Under the pieces are notes generated by a model that saw nothing but the letters and a program-made list of their open reading frames with translations, did no database searches and had not been told where the DNA came from. From positions 8,742,001-8,806,000 of the forward strand of contig CM120642.1 of the NCBI GenBank assembly GCA_051362555.1: a stretch of 64,000 nucleotides of DNA, in the 5' to 3' direction. Positions 5,986 to 57,100 of the stretch are shown in pieces. The translations under genes were made by a program, and so were the position numbers. The stretch comes from Lingula anatina (Eukaryota > Animalia > Brachiopoda). The stretch's first letter is position 1, and each line of letters starts with the position of its first letter.

Positions 5986-6663
5986 TTATACTTTCTTCTT
6001 GCTTTGTGGGGCTTCACACAACATATAAGTCAAAAGGCATGGGATAAAAATGGTAATAAATACAGCAAAAACCCTCCCACCATCAACTATTGTGTCATGA
6101 ATCTGGTTGAAAAGTTCCCTCATAATTCTCTGGTTTTCTTTTATAAATGCTCTCCTCCTTTTTTCTGCATCTCTCTCCATCTGTCTTCGATGCTCAAGAA
6201 TTCTCTTATAATTTTCAGCATACCAACGGTCAAAGTCTTCAGGTGTCTTCCAGTGCTGCCCAACACCAGGACCTTGGCGACTCTGGGGATACTTGTATGA
6301 CATAGTTGAACTTTCCTTGAACTTAGAAGGAAAGTGAAGAAAGAACTCATTATCATACTTCCTACGCATAGAGTCATTACCAATTACTTCATATGCTTTG
6401 TTTATCTCTGTGAACTTTTCATGTGCATTTGAAGCACTGCTTCTGTCAGGATGGAATTTCTTTGACAGTTCAATATAAGCAGCCTTGATCTGTTTCGCTG
6501 ATGCCGTATGGGAAATGCCTAATGTTGCATAGTGATTCTGAAACTGATGCTTTTGCTGTGATGTCCTAAAGCATCTCAATGGCTGACGAACATGCTGTGA
6601 CTGTAAGTTACAAACAAAGTGAGCAACTTTCACAGTGTCACTTTGAATCCTCTGGAAAGCCAT
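5986..6663 (-). CDS. J-domain (DnaJ type III) protein, probably mitochondrial and membrane-anchored, copy 3
   Basis: 225-aa ORF; NHYATLGI...IKAAYIELSKKFHPDRS...FTEINKAYEVIGN, closely similar to copy 2; presequence-like N-terminus; TM helix VFAVFITIFIPCLLTYML. Confidence 0.88.
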   Translation of the reverse strand: MAFQRIQSDTVKVAHFVCNLQSQHVRQPLRCFRTSQQKHQFQNHYATLGISHTASAKQIKAAYIELSKKFHPDRSSASNAHEKFTEINKAYEVIGNDSMRRKYDNEFFLHFPSKFKESSTMSYKYPQSRQGPGVGQHWKTPEDFDRWYAENYKRILEHRRQMERDAEKRRRAFIKENQRIMRELFNQIHDTIVDGGRVFAVFITIFIPCLLTYMLCEAPQSKKKV

Positions 6664-6997
6664 CCTGTTGGTATAAATTTGACATTAACTTGATCATTTA
6701 CTAGTTTAATTGCCACTTTTCTTAGCTAATTTTTGATCTTTTAATTTCATATGTTGTAGTTTGGTACAGCAGTACATGTATATAGAGTCAGTAAAAAATC
6801 CCTCCCGCACTACGGCTTCCTTTTTTACACATCATGATATAGTCTTCAGATCTTCTGTATAACCAATATACCCATTGAATGAATTTCATGTACCCTGGAA
6901 CAGTCACTTGTACCTGAAAATGAATATATTTATCATGTGAAAAAAAATCAATTTACTAGTAATCAGTTTTTTAAGCCTGAGACCCACTTTCCATCTT

Positions 6998-19520: not shown

Positions 19521-22500
19521 CTATAATTTTGTAAATTTATTTATCATCATTAAATTCTTCATTGATGGATGTGAAATGTCTTTAAACGTTGGAGGCAACA
19601 GAACTTGATTTATGGAATGGATAACTCCGTTTGAGACACTCGTGTCAGGCCAAACCACATAGCTGTTTCCGTTCAACTTGATCATTCCTGAAAAAAGAAA
19701 AAGATATGTCGTAGGATGTTGATCACATCTCAACTTACTGTAATTCTATTATTTAATCACAGAATTGTCAATCTTTATCACAATAATGGTAATAGAGAAG
19801 AGGAGGCCTGTGTGTCTGAGATCGAGAGCCATGATCTAAACCACGTTCAAGGGACAAAAAACGAAATACTGGCAAGTAGGCCTATCTACAAAACGAAAAA
19901 CATGTTAACCTGCTCCACATTGTCTAAGTAGGTTGGGTCGCAGCGAAGAAAAGGTCTGACAAAGTTCTAGAAAGAGAGAGAGGGGAAATTTACCATCAGC
20001 TTGCACATCAACTTTGACTGATTTCCCGTTGACCGTTCTGACGTCACCACTCTTCAGCCCTGCGCTGTAAAAGGTGCCCTTGACCACGTGGTATGTCAGA
20101 ACCTGCGTCAGTGCTGTGACGTTGTGCAGCAGATGATCCAACATACCAGGGGGCAGTGCGTTGAATGCGACATCTGTGGGCGCGAAAATCGTGAAAGGCC
20201 CGGAACCTTAATTTAAAAAAAATGTACATATATGAATGAGCCAATATAAAAATACGCATTTTAGAAGTATTATTTGAAAAGAATAGTGTTTGTAAACATG
20301 ATCTGAGAGCTCATATAGATGATGAGAAATCGGTAATGATATAATCTGAATATTCAACTTTTTTATGAAAAGTAAATTGAACTAGTTTGAAGAAACAAAA
20401 AGTCCCCTTCACACGATCCGGACTTCTTTCATTAGCAAGAATTTAAAAACCATGAAGATGTTAAATAAATCATAACGCCTAAAAGCCTATCCAACTTCAA
20501 GAAGAGGTTAGAAAGCCATTTTGCATGGCATCTCTCCTCTTAAGTTTACTTTTCATATTTTTATACGGAAAAAATTAAAAGCAGCCATAAGATTTACAGA
20601 AGAAATCGGAAAATAAAATTTAAAAAAAACTTACTGCTACAGTGATCAAAACGTTTCAACAGAAGCCTTACCAGACAGTGTATTAACTAGCCCGGCTTGT
20701 TGCAAGGCTAGTTTCAGAGTCTTGAAATTGTTAAAACTAGCCACCAATTCCGCGGCGTTCATCGTAGGGATTGAGGTCATTACGCAGTCCAGCACGTGAA
20801 TGACGCCGTTTGTGGCGTTCTGGTCAGCCTTGGATACTGGGCAGCCAGAGGCGGTTATTTTCTGAAGGAGTTCAGGGGGAAATTTTTAAAAATCTAAAAG
20901 GCATTCATTCAGTGTATTTTTATTTTCAAAAAGCAAGTTAGGTAATGTATTTAAATAAGTCTGTGATGGATTACAAAGGTGTACTGTTTCTATGTGTCGA
21001 CTATGAAATCTCTAAAGAAAAATATTAAAATTGGATTCATTGGTCATCCGCAGGAGGTTTTCACTGCCGGCAGAGACCAATGGTAACGTTGTAGAACTTC
21101 TTTAAAGTCAAAGAATATTAAATGCGAGATTTCTGATATATAATTTTTTTCGAAGAACATATCTGCATGAAACCTACGTAATCATGAGTAACCCCCCCTT
21201 CCTAAAATAAAAATGTGCGAAATCCGGTTTGATCCATAGAGGTACTTTAGAAAGAGAGAGGGGGGGGGGGAGGTTATCAACTGGGTGGCCTATACCTCTC
21301 CATATATGTTCACTCTCACACCGGCTCCCTGCATTGACTTGACAACCAGATCGTTCTTTACTTGACTGGAGTACACGTCTTCAGCAATCACATGGTATTC
21401 CAGCACCTCTTTAAGAGCTGTCACATTGGACAATAAGTGCATCACTATCTCTGGCTTAAGTTTTTTAAAAGCTGCGTCACTTGGACCAAACACTGTGAAG
21501 GGACCTATAAAAGGAAGGGCAAGGTTGTATTAGGGTGAGATATTGTATGGTCCTTTTGTGAGACACCCTGAGATTCTGGGTTTGGGACCTCACCTCTATA
21601 TAGACACCACTTCCCCTAAAATGGTCTACAAAATGAAAGTAATTCTGTAACAGACTACCAGACCCAGAGGTCAGAAAGTAATTCCGAAGTTGTGACGGCT
21701 TTTCACAAGAAAAGCTTTATTAAATATTGCTCTTAAACTTGGAACAATTGCCACCAAGACCACTCTTGATAAAGGTTTTTCATAAAAAAACTAAAGAGTA
21801 TCTCTAAAGTAAAGAAAAGGTTGAAACATGTTCAACTGGTACAAGAAAAAAAATCAGAAGACTTGCTTTGTAAAAGTTGGGTCCGACATCGACTTACCTT
21901 TGCCATATCGTAACGCAGAGCCCAGACCAGCGGTCTGAACTAGTTGTACTAAAGTGTGAGCGCCTAAATTGTCTGCCAGGTCTAAGATATTGAATCTCGG
22001 CGACTCTGCAGTGTTCGTTTCTTCTATTAAGCAAAAAAAAAAAGAATAAATGGAGGGGGACATTGAATATTAACGATAAAAGCAAAATAAAACTTAAAGT
22101 CAGTTTAGAATAATTCTTCATTTACTTAGTTTTCATTTTTAATAATTATAGGCCTATGAAAGATTCGATACATATTTTAAATAAAAAGTAATGTTGATCA
22201 CTTATACATAAGAATTCCCTAATTATTAAAAAAAAGCACTGTGCAGTAGAAATGAAGTCCGCGATTTATAAGTGTGTGTGTGTGTGCATGTATGTATGTG
22301 TGAAGTCAAAATGCAAATGGGCCGCTCTCACCGAACCTACCTATTTCATCAATAGATGATTCTGCTGGCACCAAGAGGTCTTCCCACATCGTTGGGGGTA
22401 TAAGCACCGAATCTATGACATGGACAACGCCGTTGGTGGTGGATAAATCTGCCATCACCACTCGAGCACTGTTTATTAGGACACCAGCTGTAAAAGAAAA

Positions 22501-25344
22501 CAATCAATCAAGTTCCCCAAGTGTTGTTATACTGGGTTTTCTCTATTTACTGGGATTCGATTGACCAATGTAAAATGATTCATTTGTAAAACCTTTTAAA
22601 ACTCCAAATATTATAATTATCCAAAATAAAAAACAACACCTTTTTTATAACGAACGAACATACACAAGGAAATAGGCACTCATCGAACAAGTCGATTCGT
22701 CGTGCCTGTAATATTGCACCTTTTTTTTAATTTTGCTGATTTGCAAAGTGGTGGGGGAGGGGGGGGGGAGAACACACGAAACTCACCAGAAGAACTAATG
22801 TTCACGGTCAGCTTGGCTCCATTAACCGTCGGCACCATTTCTCCGTTAACGAGGCCGGCGCTGTAGACGGTCCCTTGAACAACGTGGTACCTGAGCACAA
22901 GCCCCAGGGCCGTTACGTTACTCACGAGCTTGTTAAGAACGTCTGCAGGTAGTTTTTCGAACGCCTCATTAGTGGGGGCAAAAACTGTGAATGGCCCGGC
23001 ACCTGTAAAAAAAGAAAGTCGCTTAGGGAAGTACAGGTTAAATGATGTAAAGATTCTGGTTGTGGTGTGTTCAGACGTGGGGTATCTGAGACCGGAATCG
23101 GTCTACACGCATCAACAGAGGATCATAAAACAGTTGTAACTAACTTTGCTTTAAACATTCTGATCGCTGGTTCATCTAGACACCCGGTGACACAAGTTAT
23201 CTGATTTCTAATAAAAAAGAACTACCCTGAAGGCGGTTTAACTAAAGAACCGAGAGCTAAAACATCGAAGGACCACGTCCCTGCTTTGAAACGGTAATCA
23301 CACATATGAAAAACATATATTTCGGATGTAATGATAATAATAATAATAAAAGTGAAAATTAAACGTTACATTGTGAAAAAATTAAGGGAAGGTGTCCAAA
23401 TGTCTCCATCAACCCAATATTGGTTCAACTTACTTGAAAGTGTCCCAGCCAAATTCGCTTTAACTACCAATGATACCAGGGTACTAAAGTGTTTGTCACT
23501 TTTGGCCAGATCCACGATTGTCCCGGATGGAATAGGATACAAAACCTTGTCAACTACGTGGATGACTCCGTTTGTGGCATTTTGGTCAGCAAGATCAACC
23601 TTGCAGCCATCTGCAGTAATAACCTGAAACGCACGCGAAGCTAGCTTGTAGTTCAAAAAAGAGGAAGAACTCAGGAGAAAGATTAAAAAATTCTCATACG
23701 CCAGACGTTTTTATATGATAATGGCGTTTCAAACTAACACGATCATCATTCTATAAAGTTTATTCCGTTAAAACGGCTTTCGCACACTGCATACCTTGGT
23801 GTCGGTTCCATAGATATTTATCCTGATGGGAGAACCCTGTAGGGAATTTGCCGTCATGTCATTCTTCAACTGGCTGGAGAATACGTCACCACTGATCACG
23901 TGGTACTTGAGGACCTCCTGCAGAGCAGTGACATTTGACTTGAGCTGGTCAATGACTTTGTTTGGCAAGGCGTTGAATGCCTGGTTTGAGGGACCGAATA
24001 CTGTAAACGGCCCTAGAATTTGTGGGAAAATACGAAAAATAAGGCAATGTAAATAAATAGTTCTTAACGTCTTAATAAATGCTATCTTGATGCACAACCA
24101 TGACTACCCACATGAAGATTCATATACCAGTGATATCTGAAAAGTTTTAAGTCTCTTCATAGAAACCATGTTCTATGAAAGGAGTTGAGGCATGGTGAAA
24201 AGAAACCAGTGTCTGCGAGTTCACGCCTGTACTTTTGCGCCAGATGCTTAGGATATTTCGCTAACTTGACCAAAACACTATATGAAAGTGATCCCTTATT
24301 CAAATGGTCTATTACTCTATCTTAAAATTACTCCGTCGAAGAAGAAGGAACCTTTTGTGCGTGACGAGAATAAAAGAAAACATGATTTGACGCCATTTCT
24401 CCCAGTTTGTTGTGAATGGCAAGCAAGGTCCTACCTGGTCCACCCAATGCTCCTACGAGTCCAGCATCTTGAAGCAATTTGACCAACGTTGTAGCACCCA
24501 ACTTCGTAGCCAGCTGAACAATGTTTTCAGTCGGATTTGCCCGATGCTCGTCTAGTTGATCTAGGTTCTCAATAGGTTCAGCTAGGTTCTTGGTGTGTGA
24601 TTCCATTATTTTTTGCCGAAGCGCGGGAGGAAGGAGAACCTCGTCAATGGCATGGATAACACCGTTAGTGGTGGAAACATCAGCTATTACGACTCTGGCG
24701 GTGTTGACCAATACACCAGCTGGAGACAGGATTAAAATAAAATGTTCATGGTAATTTTGGATGGTTTATGAAACTTTAAAATCAACTTAACTGCTTTAAA
24801 AAATAACGGATTTTGAAATGCTATGCACTACAGCATATTCGTTATTTCAGCGATTATTTAGTTTTGATGACTCTAAATATTATTTGATGAGATGTTGACA
24901 GGGAATACTGCATTTACAATGAATTTGGCCAGGTTTAAGAGGTTGTAGTGACAATGCACAATTTCGGTTTTAAAATTGAATAATTCACATAATTACATCC
25001 AAAACGGGCGTGATGGAAAATTCAATATATTTTTACGACTAATGTAGTGAATATGTTTTGGATCAACAACACGCGGATAAGTTTCCAAACTCTCACCGTC
25101 GTGGTTAAGCTTGATAGTGACAGATTTTCCATTCAACGTCTTGACATCTCCGTTGGACAGGCCTGCACTGTAGAATGACCCGTTGACAACGTGGTATAGG
25201 AGGACCTGAGTCAGCTCGGTGACGTTGTGGAGAAGTCGGTCAAATGCTCCAGGAGGTAACTTACTGAATGCTTCGTTTGTAGGGGCGAATACGGTGAAGG
25301 GTCCTTTAGCTGTAAAGATATGGAACAAATTATCTTTCTGGATG

Positions 25345-25377
<33 letters not shown>

Positions 25378-27016
25378 GAAAATTAGAACAATTTTTGTTA
25401 AATTATGTATCTGAAGGCACTATGTTTCGGCTAATAATTATCTTCCGTTTTCAAAGAAATTCCCAATCTTCACAAAAGAAAAGTTTTAATTAGGATCTCC
25501 CTTCCAGTTTATTCTGAAGTCTTAATAAAATACACCAATGTTAAATTATTAAAATAAATGGGAGACGACTTTAAGAACGTCACGACAAATTCGATACGAA
25601 AACAGAAAAACGAAAGCACGGCGGTTAGCCGAGGTACTTCTCTCTCACCTGATAATGCACCGGTCAAGCTAGCCTTAGTTACGGCCAAAACGAGCGTCCT
25701 GAAGTCGTGGTTCGCCACTGCCGTACCAACTATTGTACCCACTGGGACTGGGAACAGGACCTTGTCCACCACATGAATAACCCCGTTGGTGGCGTTCTGG
25801 TCAGGCAAGATGACCTCGCACCCTGAGGCAGTGATCACCTGATTAATACACAGACAGAAAATATGGAAGTGTACAATTTACACTGACTGTTGGTAAATAA
25901 AGAAATAAGATTTTAACTCTTAACACATGCTTGTGTTGGTGCAAGATATAGGTTTTTAACTTTGTGTCACGAAAAACTTTGCCTGCAATGTAGCACTTAA
26001 AAATTGCAATCTAATAGCCAAAATTCTGAACATCTCTGAATAAGTAACAAAATCACGCACTTTTCCGTCTTTGTAAATGTTCACCCTGATCGGGGCACCT
26101 TGCAGTGAACTGGCAATCAGGTTGTTCTTCAGCTGACTGGAAAAAATGTCCCCAAGTATAACGTGATATTTCAGGACTTCCTGCAGCGCCGTTTTGTTCG
26201 CCATCAGCAGATCTAACACTGCCTTTGGTAGAGCCTTAAACGCCTTGTCAGTCGGCCCAAACACGGTGAAAGGGCCTAGAAATTATCAAATTTTGAAATT
26301 CATTTTATTTCACAGAAATTAGAATCGGAGAAAAGATAGTTGATATGAATATGTTTTGTAAGCTGAATGTGGCTTGTATTGATGTTTTTAATTGTTTTTT
26401 TTTTTTTTTTTGTGTTTAATGATTATCTCATTTTCTTGATATGATTGAGTAGTGTTCCTTTTTTTAGCTTAATCGGAGTTTGTCACAGCAGAGCAGTCGC
26501 ACCTAACACAATGTTGCTTATGCAAGCTTTTGTTGACACTATTTATCTATTGTCATAGATATGAAACATGAAAGACATTACGGCTAATGTTATGTTCTAA
26601 CAATAAACAATGACTGAATGCATTCCTGCTCTGTAACCCCTACAATACAATTGTTGGATCAAAATGGAGTATTCTGGCTGTAGACAGAGGAAACAACTGA
26701 GATGCTCTCCCCAATTCTATTCATTAAAGATCAAGCCCTACCTCTGCAAAAGCATGTCGGCCTGTTTCGGCCATGTCGCCTTACCTTTGCCTGACAGTGC
26801 ACCTTGAAGTCCTGCATCCTTGACAAGCTTGACCAGTGTCTTGGCCCCCAGTTTTTCGGCCAACTGGACAATGTTGCCCGACGGAGGAGCATGCTGCTTC
26901 AAAGTCAGGGGGTCAAGTTTTGTCTGGACGTTCTCTGACCAGTGCAGCCTGTGCAGCTCGGCACCGTGGCTACAGCAGGCCCAGAAACTCAGCAACACCA
27001 CTGCGACAAACTGCAT
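19521..27016 (-). CDS. Secreted fasciclin protein with six FAS1 domains (TGFBI/periostin-like), ~936 aa, 14 coding exons
   Basis: Exons (minus): 27016-26785, 26275-26061, 25838-25649, 25309-25097, 24719-24435, 24012-23795, 23623-23434, 23002-22787, 22487-22341, 22023-21898, 21504-21296, 20861-20672, 20206-19994, 19687-19521. All introns GT-AG, phases consistent, 2811 nt total. Signal peptide MQFVAVVLLSFWACCSHG; six copies each of H1 (GPFT[VI]F[GA]P), YHV and H2 (NGV[IV]H..[DN]). Confidence 0.9.
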
Positions 27017-27133
27017 TATGTGAACGAGAATATATCGTTTGGGGTTGCACCTGTAACCCGACACGTCTCAACAGGTCCTATGTGTGTTACCTGTACGACA
27101 ACTATGGCAATGTGAGCAGACCCGTGGAGCTGC

Positions 27134-31699: not shown

Positions 31700-32195
31700 C
31701 CCGCCGGGATATCCGCCTTTATTGATCGCGATCCTGATGAAATGTTTTGGAAAGTTTACTCGGCAGTCTCTGGTTCTTCATGGAAGAATAAAACAACCAT
31801 TTATGGGCAGTGAAGGAGTGCAGAGCACGTAAAAAAAACTGCGTTCAGACTGTTCTTTTTTTTAACAATTGCTTATGGTTCCTGTCACGCGCTCTAGCAC
31901 CTAGCATTTTTCTTCCTTGAAAGTGGAATGTTCTTCTTTCATGTTCATTCATGCCTCTGCTTTTCTGAGTTCCCCGCAGGTTAGGATTTCCTACTTGCTA
32001 GACACGTGAATCGCTAAAATCGTCGCCAACCGTGACCGGACGACAAGATTGCCGGAACAAATTGAAAACTAAATAAATGTAGAAAAAAAATATGACCTCT
32101 CACCTTACCGTATTTATGTACACAGACGTATGCATGTGAAGTATTGCTTAATTCCTTCCTGATGCACCAAATTCGATGGTGAGCTATAAATAAAT
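31700..32195 (+). promoter_or_regulatory. Putative inducible promoter of cytokine-like gene A
   Basis: TATAAA 32185-32190; STAT-type TTCN3GAA at 31777-31785 (TTCATGGAA) and 31913-31921 (TTCCTTGAA); kB-like GAGTTCCCC 31967-31975 and AGGATTTCC 31983-31991. Confidence 0.45.
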
Positions 32196-32472
32196 TATAT
32201 ACTCACATTTGCATCCAGACAACATATAAATATTGCTGTTCATTTGTCCATCCACATGACTGAAAATCAACGACAAGTTTAAACCAGGCTTAACTTTTTT
32301 CTCTTATCAACCATTGGAGGAATATCTTTTTGACCAGCTAGAGTGAAGCTGAATATAGTTTTGGACGCAGAAAACACTGACGCAAAGTTCGAAGAGCTAG
32401 TTATTAAAAATTAAAATCGACAAAGTGCCTGAAGAATCTGTTTTAAATCCTAAAGAAGCGATATTTCTGCCG

Positions 32473-34258
32473 ATGGAACTTTCTGGTAAGTATACAAAAT
32501 TTTAAAAGCTATTTTATCTCATCTATTCATATTTTTTCTTTTTTTGTCATTCGTGACAGATGTCTGTTGTGAGGTGTTCTAATAGTGCATTAGTGCATTA
32601 AAACACTCTCAGCATGTTTAATATCCAAATGTGATTCTAAATATTAGCTTTCGCTATTTTGAAAGTAAAAACGTTCCACATTTGGTATAGATAATTCCTC
32701 AAAAGAAAATGGACATCTTTAGTAACATGCAATCGTCATGTTTTCATTTTTTTTTTTTTTTTTTTTTTTGCGATCATATCTTCGTAGCATACACTCTCGT
32801 AGTTAAGATTAAGATTAATTCTGAATATAAGTCAACAAAAATTCGTGGCGTGTTCTGATGTCTGTATTTCTGCCTTTTAAATAATTCATTCGACAGTTTT
32901 CATAGAAATATCCGGTGACACAGATTAATATCGCCCCGTGTTAATTCACGTCTATTACTGTAATAGGTGTACTCCTCCGATTTAACATCCTCATTGTTGC
33001 TGTCCTCATACTTGGCGATAGTAACTCCGTTGACGCGAGGTCCCTGCGTCGGCGACGTGCTCACGAGCCAGACAAGTCCCTTTGGTGGTACTGGCCCTGC
33101 CACGGAACAGCGCCTGTAGCCGGAGGCCCGGAACTTCCGAAGGTCCACCGAGAGTTGCACCTTCTTCGAGATGAAGTAATCGAACATTCCAAGCAGACGC
33201 GGGCACACGCTCTTGAACTGCAGAAAATGATTGTAAGTTGGTTTTGCTGTTTTGTTTCTTAACTGATTGGACTATTGATATTTTACAGCGAACTGTTTTT
33301 TTTTACATTTGTAGGCTGAAATATTGATTTTAGTTAAATAGTCAAGTACTGATAATTCAAAGTTATACAATGATAAACTAAATAGTAAAGGAAAAAGATC
33401 AAACACTTACAAATTTTGAAGCATTCATTATATACTACTCTATAATTCAAATACTGTCGAAATCTGAGACTCTTCAACATTTTGTAAACATAATGCATTT
33501 TGTTTCACTATTCAGAAATCCGAGCATTTCTCTTGGTATTCGAACGAAACAATCAGCTATTTTGCTCAAAATGCTGTTCCCGAAAGTCTTATGAAGTGTA
33601 ACCACCTAGCCGCAATGGACGTGTATACGAGTCTCCAAAAGTGGGGAGAGACCAGCCTCGATGCATACAAAACATATCAGGTAGGATTTTATATAAAATA
33701 TCTGTTTGATGGAATTTTTTTACTTACCACGTGCACACGTTGCTTAGAACATTTCTGGCTGGAACGTGTCGTGTTCTTATGTTTCTCATATCGCCTTAGC
33801 AGATGCAAAATCCATCTGATGCACGAATGAACAGAATTCTGTTTCTATATCAATATATATATATATATATATATTTTTTTTTTCATTTCAAGCTTCCCTT
33901 GTTGAGCGAAGCGTACGATTGCCTCAGCAGTTATGCCATTCACGTCCATCACATGGATAAGACGTTTTCAGCAGATCCATTAATGCCCCTCAGCGAAAAA
34001 TTGAAAGAGAAATCGGTGACATCCAAGCACATTTTGAAACAAACACTCGAGATCCTGTGCAGTCTAAAAGAGTTCATCTATGGTACCAGTGCCGAGAGAC
34101 AGCTTCGCTGGGAACTGCTCACTTTCCCCCGGGGTGATTTCAAAGGACAGGCAGATATTTCAATACCTGAAGGAAAGACAGAGAGATATCTGATGGAATG
34201 GAAAGTGATAAGTTTGCTTGAAAAGTACATGTTGGGGCTAAGTAAGGGGGGTGTTTAG
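32473..34258 (+). CDS. Secreted putative four-helix-bundle cytokine (Unpaired/IL-6-like), paralogue A, ~269 aa, 4 exons
   Basis: Exons 32473-32485, 32967-33232, 33516-33680, 33893-34258 (GT-AG, 810 nt, in frame). Protein: signal peptide MELSGVLLRFNILIVAVLILG..., furin-type RSLRRRR, SLWWYWPCHG, helical segments LHLLRDEVIEHSKQTRAHALELQKMI, LPLLSEAYDCLSSYAIHV, LKQTLEILCSLKEFI, RYLMEWKVISLLEKYMLGL. The paralogue at 38507-40109 supports the model. Confidence 0.8.
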
Positions 34259-37200
34259 GTTTCAAACAACAAATTTAGAGCACTTTAAGGTGGGGACTGA
34301 GGCGGATCCTAATTAATGTCATGCTTCTACAAGGCGACATCAATTTTTTAGTCAAATTGGTGTTATGGTAATTAAGTCACTAAACTCTTGTGCTGTGGAG
34401 GATCTGCAGTTAAGTGAGGAAAAAGGGAGAGGGGGAGGGGCAACGAAAAAAGAAAGAGGATTTTCCCGTGGCTCTTCCGGGTCTCTTTTTATTGTAAATG
34501 GTTGGTGATGAAACATTAGACCCTGTTCTGGTGATGAAATTCTAGACAAATTTTTAACAAATTTTGTTTCACAATACTCTAGTCAACTGTGTACTTGAAT
34601 ATCAAGATATTTATCCATTGTTGTGTTTGCGAGACTTGTGTCATGGAAGTAGGTTGCAGACCTACTGAATACTTTTTCAGTATTAATTTTATTTCTATTA
34701 TTTTTTATTTGTATTATTTCTGTTTTTTATCATTGTGAGATTATTGTCATTTTGTTGCAATCATTTAAAAGCGGGTATTAACCTTACGTATTGTTTTAAT
34801 GTACTTTTTCTTTTATAATTTTCCTGTGGGTAAAAGTCTGTGAAATACAGAACTAAAAAATTCACACATATCAAGTCAAATATTAACCGATGTCCAACAA
34901 AAAAGTTTTTGATATAAAAAAAAAAGAAAAAAAGATACGATTTCAAAGTAAAAAGTATAAGCATCTTCAAAGGCGAATTAGTGTTGTATGACTCTGGGCC
35001 GCAAGATTTCTAATTGAATTTTTTATTTAAATCACTGGTTTCAGTTCAGTGTAGTTTCAAAGTTATTAACGACATTGTTGAGAGATATATTTTCAAAAGA
35101 GATGTATTACAAATACATTCAAAATTGCAGAAACATTTTAAACGTATTTTATCTTTGTTAATCTAAGTATACATTACAATGACAAATATTTTTTTTATTA
35201 AAAACTGCACACTGTTGTCAATGATGTTGTATATTGGTACATGTTTATGTTTCGAAAAAAATAAATTTGTTGGGGGAAAAATCTCTCCCTTCAATCTTTA
35301 AAAATATTTTCTGGTGTCAAGGGTCTTCTTTTCTGTTAAAGGCAACTGCAACTGTAAAATAACATGAAAAGCTTTCAAATATGGCTATGGCTCTATCTGG
35401 ACACACTAGGTCAAATGCACTAGATGGTGTCCAGCTGAGCATATTAAATTTACTAACTGTAAACTTGATATATAAAACTGACCTGCACCGTAAGCTGACG
35501 CATAGGACAGTGCTTACACAGCAGGATATGTAATTTTTGAAATGACAGGTTAATCCCCTATGGAACTATCGTTCATTGATCAAGGTATCCTCATTGCACA
35601 AACATAATCCAGTGTATCCGCCCACTCCCACTTCTACCATTATGAATGAAATAAATCTGTGTCTGACTTTCCTCGTGCTCCATGCCTTACACACCATGCA
35701 TGCTTGTTCTTTCCAGATCATGCACACATTCTATTTACTTATATTAATTTTCCCCAGGGAGTGCCGCGACTCTACCCTCCACCATCGTATTGTATGCCCA
35801 AAAGAATTTCCATTTTAAACCGTCCGTCTCTTGCACTTGTTAAAACCCCGTTAATTTACATTTTCCCCCAATATGCATAAAACAATGATCTGGACATAGT
35901 GGTAACATAAATCGATAATGATACTTGAAACATTCAAGTAGATTAGTTAAGGTAAGAAGAAATACGATACTTCCGTTATGCCAAAACACATTTATCCGCC
36001 TACTTGAAATTTCAATACCCAAATCCCAATTTATTGTCAAATTTACGATATTGTTTCCTTAAGTCACTCTACAGAAATGCATTTCACATTCCATAGGTAA
36101 TTTTATCCTCCATTTCAGAGCAATTGCCGAGTAACAACCCTTTGTGATTTTTGAGTATACAACACCATAGTGTCTGAAAATTTTCCCCAATCATAAATGA
36201 CAAGGTCAAGTTGTATTGGTCAGTTACCGCCCAATGTATAAACAGCACTTCGTATGATGAAATAGATCTTTTCTTATCTCTTGTGGAAAGGAGGTACAAA
36301 AAGTAACTTCCGGGGCTAACTGACTTGCTTGTAGGGTGTGTAGTCAACACTCTCTGATATTATCCTTTAAAAGGGCCTAGATCTCCTGCCTCATAGGTAG
36401 ATGTCTAAAAACACGTTGACTCTCGCTAGAAACGAATTATTTTTCTTCATTTTACGTTTTTTCCATTCTGTTATTCAACTGTTATAAAGACATTTAGGAA
36501 AAATGGTTCATTATGAAAGCATCTTTAGAACTGTTTGAAGTAAAAGATTACATTTGTTGTCAAGAGAAGATTAATGTAACATGCTGATAAAAATAATAAA
36601 TATTGTGAAAAATATGAAAGGGTACCGACAGGTTTTTTGTTTGGCTATTTTTGCTTAAATAATGAAATGTAGGCTATAACTCAAGTATTATAATTGAAAT
36701 TTGATTTTAAGATATCGAATGAATCTAGATGGGTGGATTTTTAACATTAAAAATTGATATTTTTATATCTTAAGTAACTTTTCCTACCAGTTGAACAGTC
36801 AAACCCTTTTACCCTGTGTATCCATACTTGTTTACCACACTGTTTGCTTTTAAAATTGTCGTCTAGCGGCATCGGACAATTCAGTATTTTATATTTTGAA
36901 ATTAATGCCGAATGCACACACGGGTATAAATGACAGTACGTTAAAAACCAATTTCCAAAACTTTGGGATATAAGTACAATGTACGGCTCATCATAATAGA
37001 AAAAGAAGAAACTTGAAGACCACATACATGTATTTTGATACACCCTTTGAGATGGGGGAGACTCATGTTTATGCACACGTAGCATATTACATTTTCAAAA
37101 CACCATTGAATACCACAATAAATGACACGCGACCCTGAAAGACATTCCTCAACACGGATGTTTGTTCTCTTTCAACTGTTTCTGTACAAAAGAGAGGTTT

Positions 37201-37378
37201 GTGGTAAAAGTAACACAGAGATTCTATTTTACGGTTTATTCAGGGAAACCATTCTATTGGTCAAGTCTCCAGTCTCCTCCCTCCCCCTTCTCTCTTTGTT
37301 TCTAGGCCCCTTGCTATATTTCTTTTTTCTAAACCACCTGATCTCTCTCTCTCTTTCTCTCTGCTTGGAGTAAGCCAG

Positions 37379-37652
37379 CAGGGGCGGATCCAGGATTATT
37401 TGAAGGGGGGGGGGGGGGGGGGGGGCGTGGATGCGAAGCCGACCCTCCCCCCCCTCTTGACGTAGGGTTTGGGGCTCAAAAAAACTTTGGTGTTTTAGAG
37501 GGTGCTTTAGAGGGTGTTTCATTTGGGACAGTACTGTATAGAACTATGATTTAGCTAGTCGAAATTGCACTTTCAAGAGGGGAACATTGGTGTTTTTTTT
37601 CAGAAATCGAAGGGGGGATCAAGACCCCTGGCACCCCCTAAATCCGCCACTG
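37379..37652. mobile_element. MITE-like element with GC-rich termini (CAGGGGCGGATCC...AATCCGCCACTG)
   Basis: Imperfect terminal inverted repeats. The same end (CAGGGGCGGATCCAGGATTATTTGAAGGGG) recurs inverted at ~17941-17971; related ends at ~47718-47880, ~52985, ~58235 and ~60700. No clean TSD. Confidence 0.5.
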
Positions 37653-38506
37653 CGTCAGTGAATTGGGAAAACCCCGGGATTTTTTATCTGATTTCCACAA
37701 TGAGACGGATGGGCAGAGGCGGCACAATGGGACTACGAAAATAATTGTCTTTTCTATTGCCACAGCTAAATGGTCAAGCGCATCAAACCAATATTTATAT
37801 TTTCAACACATAAATGTGTGAGCATTCAAAATTATCGTCTCTTTTGTAGGGTCGAGAACAATATACCCATCCTGTTGTGGCTATGAGCTCCACATATTAT
37901 TAGTACTGTTGCCTCTACTCACTAAATTAGACACCAAGCATTTTGAGTCACAGGGGTTTGCAAACGAAAAGACATTCCAATCATTAGTTCCTTTAATTTT
38001 ATTTTCGAATAAATGTATGTAAGTAAAAATACATACAAAATAAATGTAAACTGTATATAAGTTGAAGTAAAAGTAATTAACATAACATATGTATAAATTG
38101 GACGACTGAGATATTAAGATAATAATATCAATTCCTATGAGCATCATCGACGAATAGCGCCAACGTTGTAAAAACGTACATGTAAAAATGGACATTATCA
38201 TCTGTAAAACAGCACCAAACACTGAATAAAATAACAGATCAATAAGAAGAAAGCAAAAAGTGTAAAGTAAGAAAAAAAAACACATGGTAAATTAAAATAT
38301 GCAAAATTAAGAAAAAAAACTCATATAAACAACATGTAGAATAACAAATTGATGTCATATGAAAAGAATGGAAACGGGTAAAAGGAAGAATAGTAACACC
38401 GAATATGGATGGGAACATATGAGTTATAATGTTAGGAGAGGGTTAAGATAAATATTTGAATATTTCAAACTCTGAAATATTATAATCGTAAAACTGAACC
38501 CGACCT

Positions 38507-40109
38507 TTATGAAATCAAACCGCCTACATAGACGCCCAGCAAACGCACCACGTTCCATTCTCTATAGTATCTGACCATTGTCGGCTCGCCACGTGGGAAA
38601 TGAGCGAATGTTGACCTTTTGACCTCTCCTGGCGGGTATGTCAGAAGTATCCAATGGAAATTCCCCGATGGCACGCTTTCGAATACAACTTCCGCCATGT
38701 AGCACAGAATGCGGTGGAGACGTTTTTTGACTGCCTTCACTTTAGTTGATATGTAACGCATTTGTGGCCTTGTCACAGGTCTCTTGAAGTTGTGTACGTA
38801 AACGGAAAACCTCACGAGACAATCATAGGTCTTGCGAAGATCGGTAAGCTGAAATAATTAAAAAGTTGTTTACAGACCCTTTTATTAATAATTTTTTTCG
38901 AATGAAATAAACTTCTAAATTCTTTACAAAACAATGCACTAATGTGTGTGTGTGTGCGTGTGTGCGTGTGTTTGTGTGTGTGAAAAGGTAGTTTCTGAAA
39001 AAGTCGGATTTGGTTGTTCGCGATATGTATTAAGATTTTAGATTTAGACTTGAAATTAGAACATGATATTTATCGGGCCATTTATGGGTTCAATAAATTT
39101 CAGATGCATATAAAACAGTAAGCTAAGTAACTCCAATGTGGATGTTTTTTCCTAATTTCTTTTCTTTTTCTGTCACATATCATAGGTTGAGAAGGTGAAA
39201 GTGATTGCTGTATGAAATACATGTATAGATTTTAGTTTTGTTATTTCATAGGACTTCATGTTGAAATGCCTCTCTTACCTCTGTATGTTCATCATACTCC
39301 TCAATGTCAGTCTCGGGTCTTCTCCGGAGACTTCTTGAAGTTTGTGAGGCAGACAGGTCATCGCATTGTCTTAAATTTTCGGGGACATGGTGGCTTGACT
39401 CCACGATTCGGTGTAATTCATTGCCATAGCCTTGAAACCGCTCTCTTTTCTTGAGTAAATAGGAAAAACTTTTGATTTTATTACCTACATTTTGTATTAA
39501 GTTTTCATCTATAAATTATTCCCTTGTTCAAGCCAAATAAAACATGAATTTATTTATGCTGTGTGTATGAAAACCTGAGACCCGATTTCTAAATAACTAC
39601 AATGGATATGAAAACGAACGCAAGATTCTCGAACTTAACATTGAAATCTTCACCGGACAGAAACGAACATTATAACTCACGCATTTACATATTTGATGAG
39701 TAAAATAAAAAAATAAATAAATAAATAAAGAGCTCTTTGTTCTCTGAGACCTTGCTGTTGGCGATATCACACTGACAATGGAAACATGTTAGAAAGCATG
39801 TGCATTTTAAGAATTTATATACCGGGTATTCATACAAACGTACCATGGCATCCTGTAGTGCGGCAATTTCCTCTCTCAGGAGAACCAGGTGCTCGGAGAG
39901 CAGCCACCTGACAGTATTCAAATCCATGTATTCCTTTGGTACACATGGATATAGATAAGCTGGCCGTGAGCCGTGGCAAGGACGGTACCACCACAGATTT
40001 GGGACCAGCTTGTCTTGAGGGCACGGTTCCGGGCCGGTCGACAAGGGTGACACCTGGCTACTGAGGAGAAGTAAGTGCAGGGTCGAGGCGGTCAGGGCGA
40101 AAATAATGT
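38507..40109 (-). CDS. Secreted putative four-helix-bundle cytokine (Unpaired/IL-6-like), paralogue B, ~260 aa; first mini-exon uncertain
   Basis: Exons (minus) 40109-39844 (266 nt, same length and phases as exon 2 of A), 39449-39279, 38848-38507; candidate start mini-exon ATGC|GTAATA at 40719-40716. Protein: signal ..IIFALTASTLHLLLLSSQVSP, NLWWYRPCHG, KRERFQGYGNE..VPENLRQC, LTDLRKTYDCLVRFSVYVH, LHRILCYMAE, WILLTYPPGE, RYYREWNVVRLLGVYVGGL. Confidence 0.8.
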
Positions 40110-42062
40110 CTAAAATCAAAATGTGATACAACGAAGTAATGAAATGTGGAGTTCATATGTACCGAATTTAAGTAAAACATAAAATACAGTGTGCGGAACT
40201 GAATCGAATCCCATCAAAAGTAAACAAAACTAAGTTAAATTGGATGGGGTTTCATATTTTGTTGTCTGTATATATTTTCTAGAGGCAAACTTCTCATTTG
40301 TTAACGAATAAACCTGTTTTGAACTTTTTGAGTAAAAACTTAAGGTTTATTAAAACTGAATGTTATTTTCACATGCTGTTTAAATCATCGGACCTGAAGT
40401 TTAGGACACTGTTTTAAGACACTTATGAGACCGTAGGATTTTGTTACAAAACAAATATGGCGACCATGTTGAAAAGTAAGTCATCCAGAAATACGTAGGG
40501 GCCTGTAGTAGGTTCTTTCTCTTTCAGTATTCTATTCTTTTAATAATATCTTTTTTTCCTGTATGTCAAATGGTTATTCAGTGTCAAGCCTTTTATTTTA
40601 CTATATTTCACTTGACCTTGACATTTTGAGAGTACAGTTTGGAAATCGGGTCAACATGTTTCAGCTGTTGTTGAAAAAATGCTATGACACTTGACTAGTA
40701 AAAAACAGATATTACGCATGTGCTTCAAGAAAAACTGAGGGCCAATGTATAAGGTGATCTTGCCTTAGAACAACATCAGGCGTTCATTTGAAGCTTGTGT
40801 TAATGTCAGTGCTTGTATTTTGTAAGCGTGTTTGCCTTTTGCACTTGACTGCCTAAAGTCTTCGTTTTACTGGCATGTATAACTGTCGCTGAAAGAAGGC
40901 GGATATGTCGCAATACTGATCATTGTTATAACTCAAGGTGGGTTGATCAGCAACTTTGGATTCATTGGGGGTGGTGGGGGGGGGGGGTGGAGGGGGCGCA
41001 AAGCTACACAATGTACGAACTCGGAGGGTGGCTTTCTCGAAAAAACATAAAACGTGCGAAAAAAAAAAGCAAGAGAATGTTCCAACTCTCTGCTTTATAT
41101 ATTGTAGTAAAATTCCCCTCTTCTTCGGTTTTTTAAAACTATTCATTTAACTTCATTGTGCCGGTCTTAACAATACTCTAGATCCATCAGTGACAAAGGT
41201 GTAGTCAACTATTTATGGATGGGATTTGACAAACGAAACCGTCTTGGGTCAATACGGTTTACACTAAACACTCATTAATTTGGACGTTTGCCACACGTTT
41301 GAAGTTGAAGAATAACACCCCACAGCCCCGAAAGAGGTTAACGGCCTTAAAGGTAATAAAAAATTTGGGAGTGTTTAGGGCAGTGTCACTATGATCACGT
41401 TTCAAGGTTTGAGTGGCCAATGTTGACACGTACACCGACCGTAGGAGAAAAAATGCCTAAAACTTGAAATTATCACAAACGGGATTTTCGCACAAATTGT
41501 TATTTTATTGAAGAAAAAAAAACAAAAACAATGCACTCCTTCTCGCAAATCTTTGCTCGACCGTCCCTTTACTCGGATTTGATGTTGGTACCAATTCTAC
41601 TTGATCAGCTTAGTTCATACATGTAGTCTTCCTGGCATTTCAAAGTGGAGGGTCGAATAGTCAGGTATTTTCATTTGAGGGCTTTTATCTTTTAGGAGAG
41701 ATCAGTAGCTTTGCATGACATTTAGCCATAACGATATGACTATGGTACGTTTTCAATCGCGCACATGTAAAGCACACGTTCGACAGAGCACAAATCATAG
41801 GACGCTGATGAAGGAATAAAATGTGTCTTCACTTGACCGGTGCAGGTGTTCTAATATCTTAGGTGCACAGTTGAATTCATATTTTGATCATGTCTTTAAT
41901 TTTAAAAAATTTCTTAACAATCCTTTAAGGATTATTAAATGTGACAATCAGCCAAGGTAATATCGGTCCTTTTTCCAGAAATCCAGATTTTGTAATAATA
42001 ACCTTACTCCTTTGCTAAGGCCAGTGTCAGTAGCTCCTACAACCAAACAAATGGATAGATGA

Positions 42063-42109: not shown

Positions 42110-42280
42110 ACCTTTTAAGTGGAAAATATTGAATAACGATCCTTTCATCTTCATGTTTTCTCTCCTTTGATGCGGACAGCTTTAAGGTTATTGTTCACTG
42201 AATATTCAGTGGTCTTGTAAGTAAGTCTCTTTTATACCCTTCCCTTGTCCTGTTTGGTGTGTGTCACTTTTTGTAAATTC

Positions 42281-42290
42281 GGGAAATTCC
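42281..42290. promoter_or_regulatory. Consensus NF-kB site upstream of cytokine-like gene B
   Basis: GGGAAATTCC matches GGGRNNYYCC; further kB-like AAAATTCCCC (~41109) and GGGATTTTC (~41481). Confidence 0.35.
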
Positions 42291-45369: not shown

Positions 45370-46524
45370 TTATGTCTGTAAGTTATTCAGAGGTAAGCCC
45401 CGATTAGTAACGTGGGACACCTCATCGAGTCTCTTCAGGGCTTGCTCATCGCCCAAAAGTTTCAGAGCAAGTCTGCGATACCCAAGCCGCACATCCGGTA
45501 ACCGGATTCCGTAGATTATCGGATTCACTAGGCTGTTACATTCGGAAACGAAACTGGTCACGGACTGCGCTATGACGATGTCCACGCTCACTGGGTCGTT
45601 CCTTTCCAAAGCCATGTAATATATGAAAAAGAAAGTGCACACCGCGGGCGTCCAGAAAATCACATTTGTGGCAAGTAGCACGGAAACAGTTGCAAATAAT
45701 TTCTTTTTCCTTTGGCCGTTACCTGTCTGTATTCTTCCAGATGAGTGTGTCGCCTCAGGGGAGCGAGCTTTTCTAACTATAAGGCACCATAGTAAGATGT
45801 TTGCCGCGAACAAAACCAAGCACGACACACCGAGGTACAGACTGGAAGCCTGAAGGTAGTGATCGTACAGGTAAGTCCAGCAGTCGTGTATGTACCAGTA
45901 AACCTTGAACTGCGTGTACCGCGCGTGCAGGCTGATATAAACCCCAATAGTCGCAGCGTAACACAGAGACATCACTATGGTGATGCGATGTTTGGTCAGC
46001 AGGGACCTGTACTTCAGTGGCTGTGTGACAGCCAGGTACAGGCTTATCACCGCCCCCGTGGTGCAGTACAACGGTACCAATGTAAAGTGGCGACACATAT
46101 CTTCTAGTATGTCATCACTGCAGTCGAAGTTTCCTATTTGTTTGATGGGTTTTTCATACACCTGCATGCGCACTATGAGTACACAATTAGCTATAGTTAA
46201 CCCCATGTATATCAAATCGGCCAATGCTATGTTAATAAGAATATAATGAAATGGTTTCCATGGGCGTTGAATACAAAGGAGAGCAGCCAGGGAGATGACA
46301 TTTTCTATGAAGCCGATAATTGCCATGGTAAGTTCTATAGGAAACATTACTCTCAAGTGACTTTGGAAGATCACATTATCTATGTTGATGAGCTCACGAA
46401 CGTCCACGTTGCCACAAATGGCGGGTGACTCCATCGAATGGGAAACGTGAGTACCATTGAGTTCGCACATCATACTGTTCGTAGCTGCGCAACAGATTTT
46501 GGCTTGAGACAAAGACAGGATCAT
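45370..46524 (-). CDS. Class A (rhodopsin-like) orphan GPCR, single-exon CDS
   Basis: Seven hydrophobic segments; TM1 GFIEN, TM2 NIALADL, TM3 end ISLYLAVTQPLKY, TM6 FWTP, TM7 NSLVNPIIY, helix 8 DVRLGY; N-terminal sequon NGT. The real start may be the MMCELN ATG (~46473). Acceptor at ~46580 suggests 5'UTR exon(s); candidate donors ~47916 and ~50742. Confidence 0.9.
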   Translation of the reverse strand: MILSLSQAKICCAATNSMMCELNGTHVSHSMESPAICGNVDVRELINIDNVIFQSHLRVMFPIELTMAIIGFIENVISLAALLCIQRPWKPFHYILINIALADLIYMGLTIANCVLIVRMQVYEKPIKQIGNFDCSDDILEDMCRHFTLVPLYCTTGAVISLYLAVTQPLKYRSLLTKHRITIVMSLCYAATIGVYISLHARYTQFKVYWYIHDCWTYLYDHYLQASSLYLGVSCLVLFAANILLWCLIVRKARSPEATHSSGRIQTGNGQRKKKLFATVSVLLATNVIFWTPAVCTFFFIYYMALERNDPVSVDIVIAQSVTSFVSECNSLVNPIIYGIRLPDVRLGYRRLALKLLGDEQALKRLDEVSHVTNRGLPLNNLQT

Positions 46525-52170: not shown

Positions 52171-54133
52171 TACCCCTTTTCGAATTTTAGTTTCTTCGTT
52201 TTTGCTTCCACGAGTGAAATTCGCCAGACTATTTTCATTATACTAGAGACTCGAAATTTAGAAACTTAACACTCAAAATGGTAATTCTGTAAGCTTTTTT
52301 TAATGCAATATGATTTGATTTATAATCGTGTCAGCTTGGCATTAATTTTGCAAGAACATGTACAAACTTTTGGAGGACTGACACGATAAGAATTGTGTAA
52401 GAATAGTTTTATCAAAGACAAACGCCGTACCAGTAGAATAGTGCTCGGCGTCTATGACAGGCTTGTATCAGAAACCTACCCAAATTTCTTATATCTTTAA
52501 CATTATTTGAAGAAAAATATGGATATGATTTACCTTGGTGCTTAAGAGAAAATGTTGAATATCTAGGCAAATTGCATTTTACTCTATGAAGGTCGAACGC
52601 TCGTTGCGCACCTTTCATCTTCTCAAAGATCAAGAGAATTTACGACCAGCTGAGGGTAGTCGTGGTGGCAGAACAACATCATTTGTTTTCCAATCATTTC
52701 GCCTTTCATCATCTTATTAAATTCCATATTATATCATTGACGGTTATTTCATTTCGAAAAAGTCAATACGTTCGTATTATCTCGCTGGGCAAATTGCGAA
52801 TTTAGGTCTACCCTTAGTTAATATGTTTACACTAATGAGTGTTTTTTTATGATTAGCTACGTGAGCGCAGAGACAGTTCGAATTAATTTTCAGTTGTCTC
52901 TGTCATGCACAGCACGTGCTATTTGCATGGACACGGCTATTAATTCCAAATCATTTGATAGCAACATATAGGCTATAGTCTTAGTCAGCGGCGGGCTTAG
53001 GATATCTCTAAGGGAGTGGGTGCCATTTTTTTTCCATTTTTATGTCCATACCCTCTGATATCTAAATAGATTTCAAAATGAAAGGAAACAATAATTTTGT
53101 AACAGACTACTAGCGGACCCTGTGTTTAGGGAGAAGGGGGTAGCGAGTGACTTCATGCATGGTGTGGGGTAAGGTGTGTCCCCTTGCCCCTTGATCAGTT
53201 CATCATCGCGCTTAAGCGGCTCTGGTGCTGGCACATCTGCTGAAGCTGCAAGGGGGTAATTCACTATCGTTCAGTAGATTCAGTAGGCGTGACAGACATG
53301 TAAGCCGCTGAAGCTAAAAGCAATTTAGCGAGAAACCCGGCCCTCGGAGATGGGTCGATCCTGTTAGATCGATCTAGGTATGGGAATGGGATCTAATTCA
53401 GCAATCTTGATTCAATTTGCTGCATGCATGTTATCCACAGGTCCAACCAGATTCAGTCAGATCTGGCTAATTAACTACGCTGACAGGTAGCTACCTGTCT
53501 CGGAGCAAAATCTTACGTTTATAATAGGCCTACAGTGACGTTAGACTTTATATTTATATGTGAGTGCAAATATGACTAAAATTAATTCATGGAAGCACAG
53601 CTGTATTTATTATTGCATCCCACATCTACACTTAAATAACTGAAATAAGACCACAGAACTAATGATGAGCGTCTCGCCCATAGCTGGTAATAAATAAATA
53701 AATAAATATGAAAATGAATACGAAAATGAAATATAAAACGATATCTAAGTTAGATTAACAGTAGTGTTTTTTTCTGTGAAATTCCCCACATAAATTGTAA
53801 GGTTTAATGTATGTATATTTAAGGACTTTACAACGAGTTGAAGGCGGCCAGTGCAACAGATTGAATCATTGATCGACCCTATGTTGATCTCGCGAGACTT
53901 TGAAGCCATTAAAAACAAGTCTTTATAGACTAATATAAGATGAGTATAAATCAATTTAAGTTCTTTAGGAACAAATTATAAATTACTTTTGTACAAATAT
54001 TATTTTAATTTTTTTTATAAATGCAATTACTGCGTAAATGCGATATATGCGACATACTTATTGTAATAGTATAACAGAATTGTAAATATCTATTAATCTA
54101 CAGAGACCTGTCTCTCGCCATATTTGGTCCCAC

Positions 54134-57100
54134 ATGTTCGCGACCTTGCTTACTTTACTATCTGCATTGTACAAAGCCATGGCTGGAAAGACACCCGAAC
54201 GTAGTTTTATCATGGTTAAGCCAGACGGCGTCCAGCGTGGGCTGGTCGGGGAAATCGTCAAAAGGTTCGAGCAGAGAGGTTACACGCTAAGGGCCATGAA
54301 AATGATGCACGTACGTATTGTCAGCCCAGTGAGGAAGCGAGTTGCTATCGACCGGTTGCCGGCCGAAGCACTTTCTCAAGGTCAATTTGGTTTTAGTCTT
54401 TATGTCATGAGTCGAAATAAAGGCACTTGCGTGTCGACGGTATAATTTCTCTTTTTGCTTGTCTATATATTTCATTAATAATTGGTGGCTGGTGTATACC
54501 TCTAAGCAGTTTTGTAGATAAGCTATAATTTTTCAGACGACAAGACACGCTCAACACGTGTCCTGAACTTCGTCACAGTGCGTTAGGTGAGATGCTAATC
54601 AACAAAACGATTAGTAAATTAGGTCTTTTGGGCCTACCATATCTTATTGTGCTTTTAGCATATATTCAATATGAGAGAAAATATATAAATTTGCAAAAAG
54701 CTTTGCGTTTGTCCTGTGTACCTTTCAAGGTCATCCGACTCCTTCAACTTGTGTTAAATCTTTTCTGAAAGGTAGCTGGAACCAAATCTGTTGTACCAAG
54801 TCGTAGATGTGGAAAAAGTGGGAGATCAGTATTAATTGCAAAATTGAAGATTTTCAGTTTATCATAGATTATGATACTCATTATAAGGAAAATATTTTTG
54901 TAAGTCTTGGCTTAACATTTTTACCTCCAAGGTCACAGGAGATCTTTGTTACATTTTTTTTAGTTAACAGCCTACAATGTAACTCTCCTATGGCATGATG
55001 GATTGTTATACAAGGTACTGCATGCTATGTTTTCACAATCATTTTAGGCCTCCAAGCCTCATCTTGAGGAACATTACAAAGATCTTAGCTCAAAGGGGTT
55101 CTTCAAGGACTTGGTTGCTTACATGAATTCCGGGCCAGTGGTCGCTATGGTGAGTAAAGAATTCTTCTATAATTAATTAGGTAATAAAAACAAAAATATA
55201 CTTTAAAAAGTTGGTTTAATATAGTAAATCTTCTGAAAGTTTATTGCAACCCTGTGATGCCAAAGGAGAATATTTTTCTTCCATTTCTTACGGTTATCTT
55301 CCCTGTGGAAGATTGATAATTGAAATCAGATAAATAATTTTACATGATTTTACCATTAGAACACCTGTTGCTGAACATGCCATCAGTGCTAATAATATTT
55401 GTGCCATGCCAAAGAATGACTGCAAAGAAAATAGTTATCTTTGACAGTATAAACCAGATAATCATGTAAGCAATAGGGCGTGGAACTAATTCTTCAAAAT
55501 CATGCAATTCTGATATTTTTAATTCAATGCGGATGGAATCAGAAGTAGACCCTTGACTCAAGCTGATGAAGAGTTTGATAGCACACTAAAAGTTTTTTTT
55601 TATAACTTTAAAACTTGGGCTCATGCCTGACCACCTTTGAACTGGAGCCCATCTGTTCTTTTGTCAAGACTGTACTAGGCTAGACTTCACATGAAGTGGC
55701 AGTGACTATATTTGGCTCCTTGATTACTCATAATTGTATCCTATGCCAGACATCCTGCCCTATTGCCTGACCTCCCCATGTGCTACTGTCTACAGCTGTG
55801 GTGGTACATACCTGGTACAGGCACCACATCTGCTGTCCACATACACCAGTAACCAGTGCACAAGTGGGGTGAACTCCCAAACTGGAAGTTTGACAATTTT
55901 TGTTACATATAGACTAGAAATACATCCAAAATGGCATAGGCATGGAGAAACTTCCTAATCATGCTGCCTTTCTTGGTCCCAAATGAGTTCATAAAACATG
56001 GCCCAAGTGTTGACCTACTGACTGTCCTGGTTTCAGTGAGCACCGGAAGGTCCACTTGCTGCACAATTAAATAGGAGGATAGCTCAGCACCGTGGCTATA
56101 TTGTATGGTCACATTTGTGCCAAAGAAAGAAAAAAAATGTAGTTACTTTGTTCACATTAATTTAAATGTACTATGCTTACAGGAGACGGATGCGGCAATC
56201 ACTTACCTACTCAACACTCTTCTGGTTTTAAGGTTCATTCCCATTCATGAAGCTGGGACAGTTAAACTACATATGCACTTTCTTAGCAGACCATGTAATT
56301 GTAGTCTTGCCAAAGTGTGATATGTGGCCTTTTATTGTGATGTTGTCATTGGATTTAACTGTCAGTTTTGACTGTGCACAGTATTAGTTGATGTGATGTG
56401 GACTGCCTTGTCTATTTATTTCAGGTGTGGGAAGGCAAGGATGCGGTTAAGACTGGGCGTAAGATGCTAGGTGAGACCAACCCCTTAGCATCGGCACCAG
56501 GGACCATCAGAGGAGATTTCTGCATTGAAGTGGGAAGGTATGGAAAATATATATTTATACAGGGTTCCCAGATTGCCTTAAATTTGGAGGACACTTGGGA
56601 TATTTACTTTCTCTTTTCCCGTCTGTGAAAAGTCAGGGAAATGAAATCTGTAAAAAGCTCCTCAAATCTGGGGAAAATCAGTAATTTTGTTTGGTCAGAC
56701 TTAATGGGATTGTCTATACCAGACCATGATGTTAATACCAAACCATGATCATTTATGTCTTATGGCCTGCAGTAGCTGTTTAACAAGGATATTTAAAACA
56801 AGAAATGGCTCAAAACTGTGATCCCAGAATTTTTAAATTCTAAAAAGGGAAATGTCAGGAAAATAATTAAAAACTGCATGCAGTTGATTTCCTAACAAGA
56901 AAATTTTATGATATGTGAAGTTTTGATTTAGGCAATATTCATATTTAAACTAATGCCATAGATGTATCTGTCTTCCATACTTCTTTGAGATTTGTGATAA
57001 TTTGAGTAATAAAGTGATGAGTATTTGGCATCTACTTGATATATTAGATTATATTTTTGTTCTTTTACTGGTCTTAGAAAGTTATAATTCAGACATTATT

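Follow-up and report, generated by a model that had tools for sequence, protein, structure and literature searches.

Do two facing genes of the brachiopod Lingula anatina encode helical cytokines that signal through JAK and STAT? The genes, here called A and B, lie in a window of 64,000 nucleotides (nt; assembly GCA_051362555.1, contig CM120642.1, positions 8,742,001 to 8,806,000), and all positions below are those of the window. An earlier note on this DNA had read them as Unpaired/IL-6-like cytokines. A and B are probably long-chain class I helical cytokines. We also lean, with less assurance, towards the whole statement that they are secreted long-chain class I cytokines acting as putative JAK-STAT ligands. 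ESM Atlas features, predicted helix spacing and exon layout support the long-chain class I part of the earlier call; the four-helix fold itself was not recovered.

A convergent pair of paralogous genes

Gene A is on the + strand and encodes 269 amino acids (aa), with its stop ending at 34258. Gene B is on the - strand and encodes 273 aa, with its stop ending at 38507. Each is spliced from four exons. The tail-to-tail arrangement, described earlier from the sequence, is seen there, and both genes are RefSeq models. All introns are GT..AG in phases 1,0,0 by sequence reading and a splice-signal listing, and both genes have an exon 2 of 266 nt; shared phases and equal exon length had both been claimed and hold in the sequence. 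Gene A is LOC106177645 (XP_013415938.1, 269 aa; three residues differ) and gene B is LOC106177613 (XP_013415906.1, 273 aa; one residue differs). RefSeq names both "uncharacterized", as the earlier note had guessed. Each forms a database cluster of one, and searches with the last exons gave one protein each.

Judged from their alignment, A and B are paralogs, with a similarity far beyond chance (73 of 227 residues identical, 32%; E-value 2e-36). Three intron positions are common to both, and introns 2 and 3 fall at aligned codons (A93=B103, A148=B160). The alignment contains all of the conserved blocks listed before, and the four cysteines described as invariant occur in both proteins (A 49, 121, 158 and 204; B 59, 132, 170 and 209; RefSeq numbering). 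B has two extra cysteines, at 44 and 70. Each protein has a single hydrophobic stretch, which is N-terminal (maximum Kyte-Doolittle 15-residue mean, 2.8 for A and 1.6 for B). The claimed signal peptides are hence signal-peptide-like, by hydropathy alone. The pair could perhaps have arisen by local duplication with inversion, followed by regulatory divergence.

Placement by ESM Atlas features

ESM Atlas features support placing both proteins among the long-chain class I helical cytokines. In the search with A (residues 36-269), ranks 1 to 4 scored 0.91-0.92 and shared 200-206 of 256 features. Its neighbours were an unnamed arthropod cluster (0.92), a LIF_OSM-bearing cluster (0.91; 11% of members) and cardiotrophin-1 (0.91). 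IL-12 alpha, IL-6/G-CSF, IL-11 and an unnamed mollusc cluster with IL6 in 11% of members followed at 0.87-0.88, the mollusc cluster at 0.87. For whole B, ranks 1 to 10 among the matches listed scored 0.90-0.93 with 195-208 features shared. These included arthropod and chordate clusters bearing Hormone_1 in 13-32% of members (0.92-0.93), a mollusc cluster with IL6 in 11% (0.91), and LIF, IL-6 (PF00489 in 65%) and CLCF1 clusters (0.90). One clan holds all 10 of the best 10 family-bearing matches, for A and for B alike. In calibration, at least 170 shared features were found in 9 of 10 true family matches and in 1-2 of 10 chance matches.

Sequence searches of 1.84 billion representatives, at E-values up to 0.001, returned no relatives outside A and B and no mollusc protein. 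The metagenome and viral contigs searched held no relatives of A or B.

Predicted structure

Two AlphaFold2 models of A were made, from one and from two sequences. Both are all-helical without strands, agree in secondary structure and contain four long helices. In these low-confidence models helices A to D span residues ~63-95, ~141-170, ~190-212 and ~244-265, with short helices between A and B and in the C-D loop. The predicted linkers, also from the low-confidence models, are ~46, 16-21 and 32 residues. This is the long-short-long spacing that an up-up-down-down bundle needs (PMC7378365). The fold check by AlphaFold and structure search that had been proposed thus yielded four long helices with the expected linker pattern, at low confidence and with no cytokine match. 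Predicted helix A closes where intron 2 interrupts the gene, exon 3 covers the A-B crossover, and intron 3 lies close to where helix B begins. Against shuffles, the amphipathicity of helices B and C is borderline (p 0.011-0.057). Helix D of both proteins fits a pattern, aromatic-x8-LL-x2-Y, which was chosen post hoc and occurs in 1.2-1.3% of shuffles. A tyrosine is common to both proteins at the predicted start of helix D (A247, B254).

The bundle would run from helix A through the long A-B crossover of exon 3 to helices B and C, and through a long C-D loop to helix D. A disulfide between Cys121 and Cys158 would anchor this crossover to helix B. IL-12p35 and IL-6 have a disulfide that joins these same two parts. 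A second, Cys49-Cys204, would link the N-terminus to helix C. The tyrosine at A247/B254 would serve as a site-III aromatic.

Gene models and RNA reads

Gene A begins with a 13-nt coding exon (32473..32485, +) that has a phase-1 donor and matches XP_013415938.1. Exon 2 (32967..33232, +; 266 nt) encodes the signal-peptide-like stretch, the WWYxPCHG block and predicted helix A. Exon 3 (33516..33680, +; 165 nt) encodes the predicted crossover with its short helices, Cys121 and a sequon at N103. Exon 4 (33893..34258, +; 366 nt including the stop) encodes predicted helices B and C, the C-D loop and helix D. Exons 3 and 4 both carry reads.

Gene B matches XP_013415906.1 in exon 4 (38507..38848, -; 342 nt including the stop), exon 3 (39279..39449, -; 171 nt) and exon 2 (39844..40109, -; 266 nt). 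The earlier note had begun B at 40719, with a coding exon at 40719-40716 (ATGC/GTAATA). That start is backed by an open frame alone, and we replace it, as the RefSeq N-terminus maps to 42154-42112. RefSeq coding exon 1 (42112..42154, -) is 43 nt long, has a phase-1 donor GTATTT and matches at 14 of 14 residues.

RNA reads were mapped from six of nine listed runs; runs X7, X8 and X9 belong to one study. Over 32150-34850 these three gave 23, 28 and 28 reads, mostly on the exons and 3' end of A. The coding exons of A had no reads in X1, X2 and X4, and X2 gave one read outside them. Among the junctions proposed earlier for confirmation, introns 1 and 2 of A stood: intron 1 (481 nt, GT..AG) was spliced out in 6 reads (X7, X9) and intron 2 (283 nt) in 6 reads (X7, X8). 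Intron 3 of A has zero depth in both bins within it (33697-33878), and its joint is absent from the joints listed; a row for one joint, perhaps the one beside its acceptor, was excluded at a repeat. Gene B has sparse reads on its exon bins (depth at most 0.78 per direction), with low coverage over exon 4 in X7 and over exon 3 and part of exon 2 in X7 and X9. No B joint was visible because poly-G artefacts filled the joint table. Mapping around B ended at 42000, short of RefSeq exon 1.

Reads labelled as the same species depart from the window at fixed positions by ~5-10% (32150-34850), which suggests a distinct population or a cryptic species. Among the differences listed between these diverged reads and A, 10 of 20 codons are synonymous against an expected 0.22 (p 0.005), an expectation that ignores transition bias. 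With the listed differences alone counted, this excess is modest support for coding constraint. At 33006, in the signal-peptide region of A, one base is missing in 5 of 5 covering reads (X7, X9), and no change that would compensate for it is listed. In that population the loss may be one half of an indel pair that restores the frame.

Candidate promoter elements and the 3' end of gene B

A putative TATA-like box of B, TATAAAAG (42229..42236, -), lies 82 nt upstream of its RefSeq ATG. A putative NF-kappa-B-like site, GGGAAATTCC (42281..42290), was read from the sequence 44 nt upstream of that box. Gene A has a candidate TATA-like box at 32185..32190 (+) and a second TATAAA at 32225, and reads reach up to ~32342. 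The window holds 4 kappa-B-like sites against 2.86 expected. The chance of one within 200 nt of either promoter is ~2% by simple arithmetic, for a site spotted post hoc. STAT-like sites in the window are at no more than chance level. B may be induced by NF-kappa-B in infection or injury.

The first kb 3' of the stop of B (37500-38506, -) is AT-rich and has 9 ATTTA motifs, against ~3.1-3.6 per kb across the window. The excess recalls the AU-rich 3' ends of cytokine genes.

Comparison with known ligands

A and B resemble the gp130/IL-6 family (LIF, OSM, cardiotrophin-1 [CT-1], CLCF1, IL-6 and IL-11), IL-12p35 and G-CSF in having a likely signal peptide and four long predicted helices with long-short-long spacing. 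They also share with these a tiny phase-1 first exon followed by phase-0 introns, and the same families are among their Atlas feature neighbours. Their predicted A-B crossover is longer than in the gp130/IL-6 family and contains two short helices, and they match this family neither by sequence nor in Pfam. In OSM, a bond joins Cys6 to Cys127, and a site-III aromatic stands where helix D begins (PMC8355150). Similarly, Cys49 before helix A could pair with Cys204 in helix C of A. The IL-6/gp130 family shares a gp130-type chain and a site-III aromatic hot spot (PMC7378365), and FxxK at the start of helix D marks the LIFR-binding subgroup of LIF, OSM and CT-1 (PMC9601804). Tyr247/Tyr254 would be placed where IL-6 has its site-III Trp and LIF and OSM have the Phe of FxxK; the Lys is replaced by Glu in A and B.

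In the proposed role of secreted Domeless/JAK-STAT ligands, A and B resemble Unpaired (Drosophila Upd1-3) and the Aedes Upd-like protein. Both A and B have unnamed arthropod clusters as their top Atlas neighbours. Pfam includes an Unpaired profile. Neither whole protein matches it at E-values up to 10, the Unpaired family being highly divergent, and no Unpaired family is among the Atlas matches listed for A or B. The Aedes protein is induced by bacteria and requires Dome (10.1101/2025.09.21.677592). Upd2 homologs were reported only from Drosophila (PMC5385356). It is unlikely that A and B are Unpaired orthologs.

Among lophotrochozoans, an IL-12 p35 homolog was reported from oyster by Xin et al. 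in 2021 (PMID 34051203). That protein would likewise be long-chain-cytokine-like, and no mollusc protein matches A or B by sequence.

Weighing the interpretation

Several observations weigh against reading A and B as long-chain cytokines. Most vertebrate long-chain members are shorter than the mature chains of A and B (~235-240 aa). The first three introns of A and B also occur in IL-6, G-CSF and growth hormone (GH) genes, which have a fourth before helix D. With this last intron missing, A and B have four exons, one fewer than the five of G-CSF genes (PMC6389648). No Pfam family matched whole A or whole B at E-values up to 10, and a sequence search of PDB with HMMER gave no significant match for either. 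The AlphaFold2 models do not fix the topology because their predicted local distance difference test (pLDDT) scores are 38-40 (means, 39.8 from one sequence and 37.7 from two). Structure searches with them returned no cytokine. The Atlas structure search with its own models (predicted template modelling score 0.72 for A, 0.64 for B) returned microbial helical proteins only and no cytokine, with best template modelling scores by query of 0.46 (A) and 0.34 (B). Helices A and D do not exceed their own shuffles in amphipathicity (p 0.38-0.72). FxxK is lacking; both proteins have Y-x-x-E at the aligned position in the presumed register. Shuffled proteins reached 0.9 in 4-10 of 100 Atlas searches and gave a one-clan list in a third. 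As paralogs, A and B are non-independent tests, and the Atlas calibration was not made for protein parts.

In another account, A and B are brachiopod-specific secreted helical proteins of shell matrix, mucus or defence, for example, and the Atlas matches reflect only "secreted, helical, ~250 aa". No relatives beyond Lingula appeared among the 1.84 billion representatives at the stated threshold, cytokines are absent from the Atlas structure lists, and Pfam gave no match. We consider this account unlikely. It would leave aside the one-clan cytokine lists obtained for both paralogs, with at least 200 shared features at the top, and the exon-to-helix layout. Read counts are also low (23-28 in three runs; none on the coding exons of A in three others), a level that may fit a signalling protein more than an abundant structural one.

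Other accounts keep the cytokine fold. An endocrine signal like GH, prolactin or leptin, or a ligand of a CRLF3-type receptor for growth or metabolism, would have the same class I fold. B's Atlas clusters place it in the clan and fold class of GH/prolactin (Hormone_1), its top clusters bear Hormone_1 in 13-32% of members, and a length of 260-270 aa agrees with those clusters. The exon layout of GH genes fits no worse than that of IL-6. There is no Hormone_1 profile match, and the GH/prolactin cysteine pattern differs from that of A and B. IL6, LIF_OSM, CNTF and IL12 clusters lie at most 0.03 below the top Atlas score, and a kappa-B-like site adjoins the TATA box of B. The ancestral protostome receptor is given as Dome/gp130-like (PMC1963337). 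An endocrine role of this kind is improbable, and JAK-STAT signalling would still apply to much of it. Class II helical cytokines, of the interferon/IL-10 kind, are also all-helical and secreted; A has more than four predicted helices, and a class II-like interferon-like protein is reported from oyster (PMC9756803). Interferon genes have intron phases 0-0-0-0 or 0-0-0 (10.64898/2026.05.30.728932) against 1-0-0 in A and B, and no interferon or IL-10 cluster is among the Atlas matches listed. A class II assignment is very improbable.

Other genes in the window

Three tandem open reading frames (ORFs) with DnaJ domains lie on the - strand (101-877, 3012-3779 and 5986-6684). They are apparently intronless, have a C-terminal hydrophobic stretch, and their N-termini resemble mitochondrial targeting sequences. 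An intronless ORF of 1937 aa (10197-16010, -) contains DUF6589 (E-value 1.6e-11) and a C-terminal TCR/CXC cysteine cluster; it resembles the large ORF of mobile elements. On the strand opposite to gene A, and upstream of it (~19900-27070, -), are one or more multi-exon genes with many fasciclin (FAS1) repeats. An intronless rhodopsin-family G-protein-coupled receptor (45370-46524, -; 7tm_1, E-value 2e-12) lies 3 kb upstream of gene B, in the same orientation. A nucleoside diphosphate kinase has its first coding exon at 54086-54445 (+).

Implications

As long-chain class I cytokines, A and B would be secreted after signal-peptide cleavage. They would bring together a Domeless/gp130-type receptor and then activate JAK and STAT. 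Lingula has a STAT, and IL6R/Domeless-like receptors occur in molluscs, with their lophotrochozoan ligand left open (PMC13203501). A Dome/gp130-like receptor predates the protostome-deuterostome split (PMC1963337). In a 2026 BLAST survey, IL-6-family cytokines were found in vertebrates only and none in invertebrates, brachiopods included, at 30% identity or more (PMC13203501). No class I cytokine was reported from a brachiopod in the literature searched, which left out most subscription journals.

If A and B are cytokines, they are members of a well-known class and bring no new mechanism. As two named candidates, expressed or annotated, they make the missing lophotrochozoan ligand of IL6R/Domeless-like receptors directly testable. 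Taken together with any comparable genes of other spiralians and echinoderms, they would place the origin of the long-chain cytokine gene, and of its exon layout, in the bilaterian ancestor. It is possible, and rather doubtful, that they are the first brachiopod JAK-STAT ligands from an IL-6/Unpaired-type gene of the bilaterian ancestor, with B keeping an IL-6-like kappa-B site upstream of its TATA box. If this is true, the inflammatory relay from NF-kappa-B to cytokine to STAT would predate the protostome-deuterostome split and would not be a vertebrate invention.
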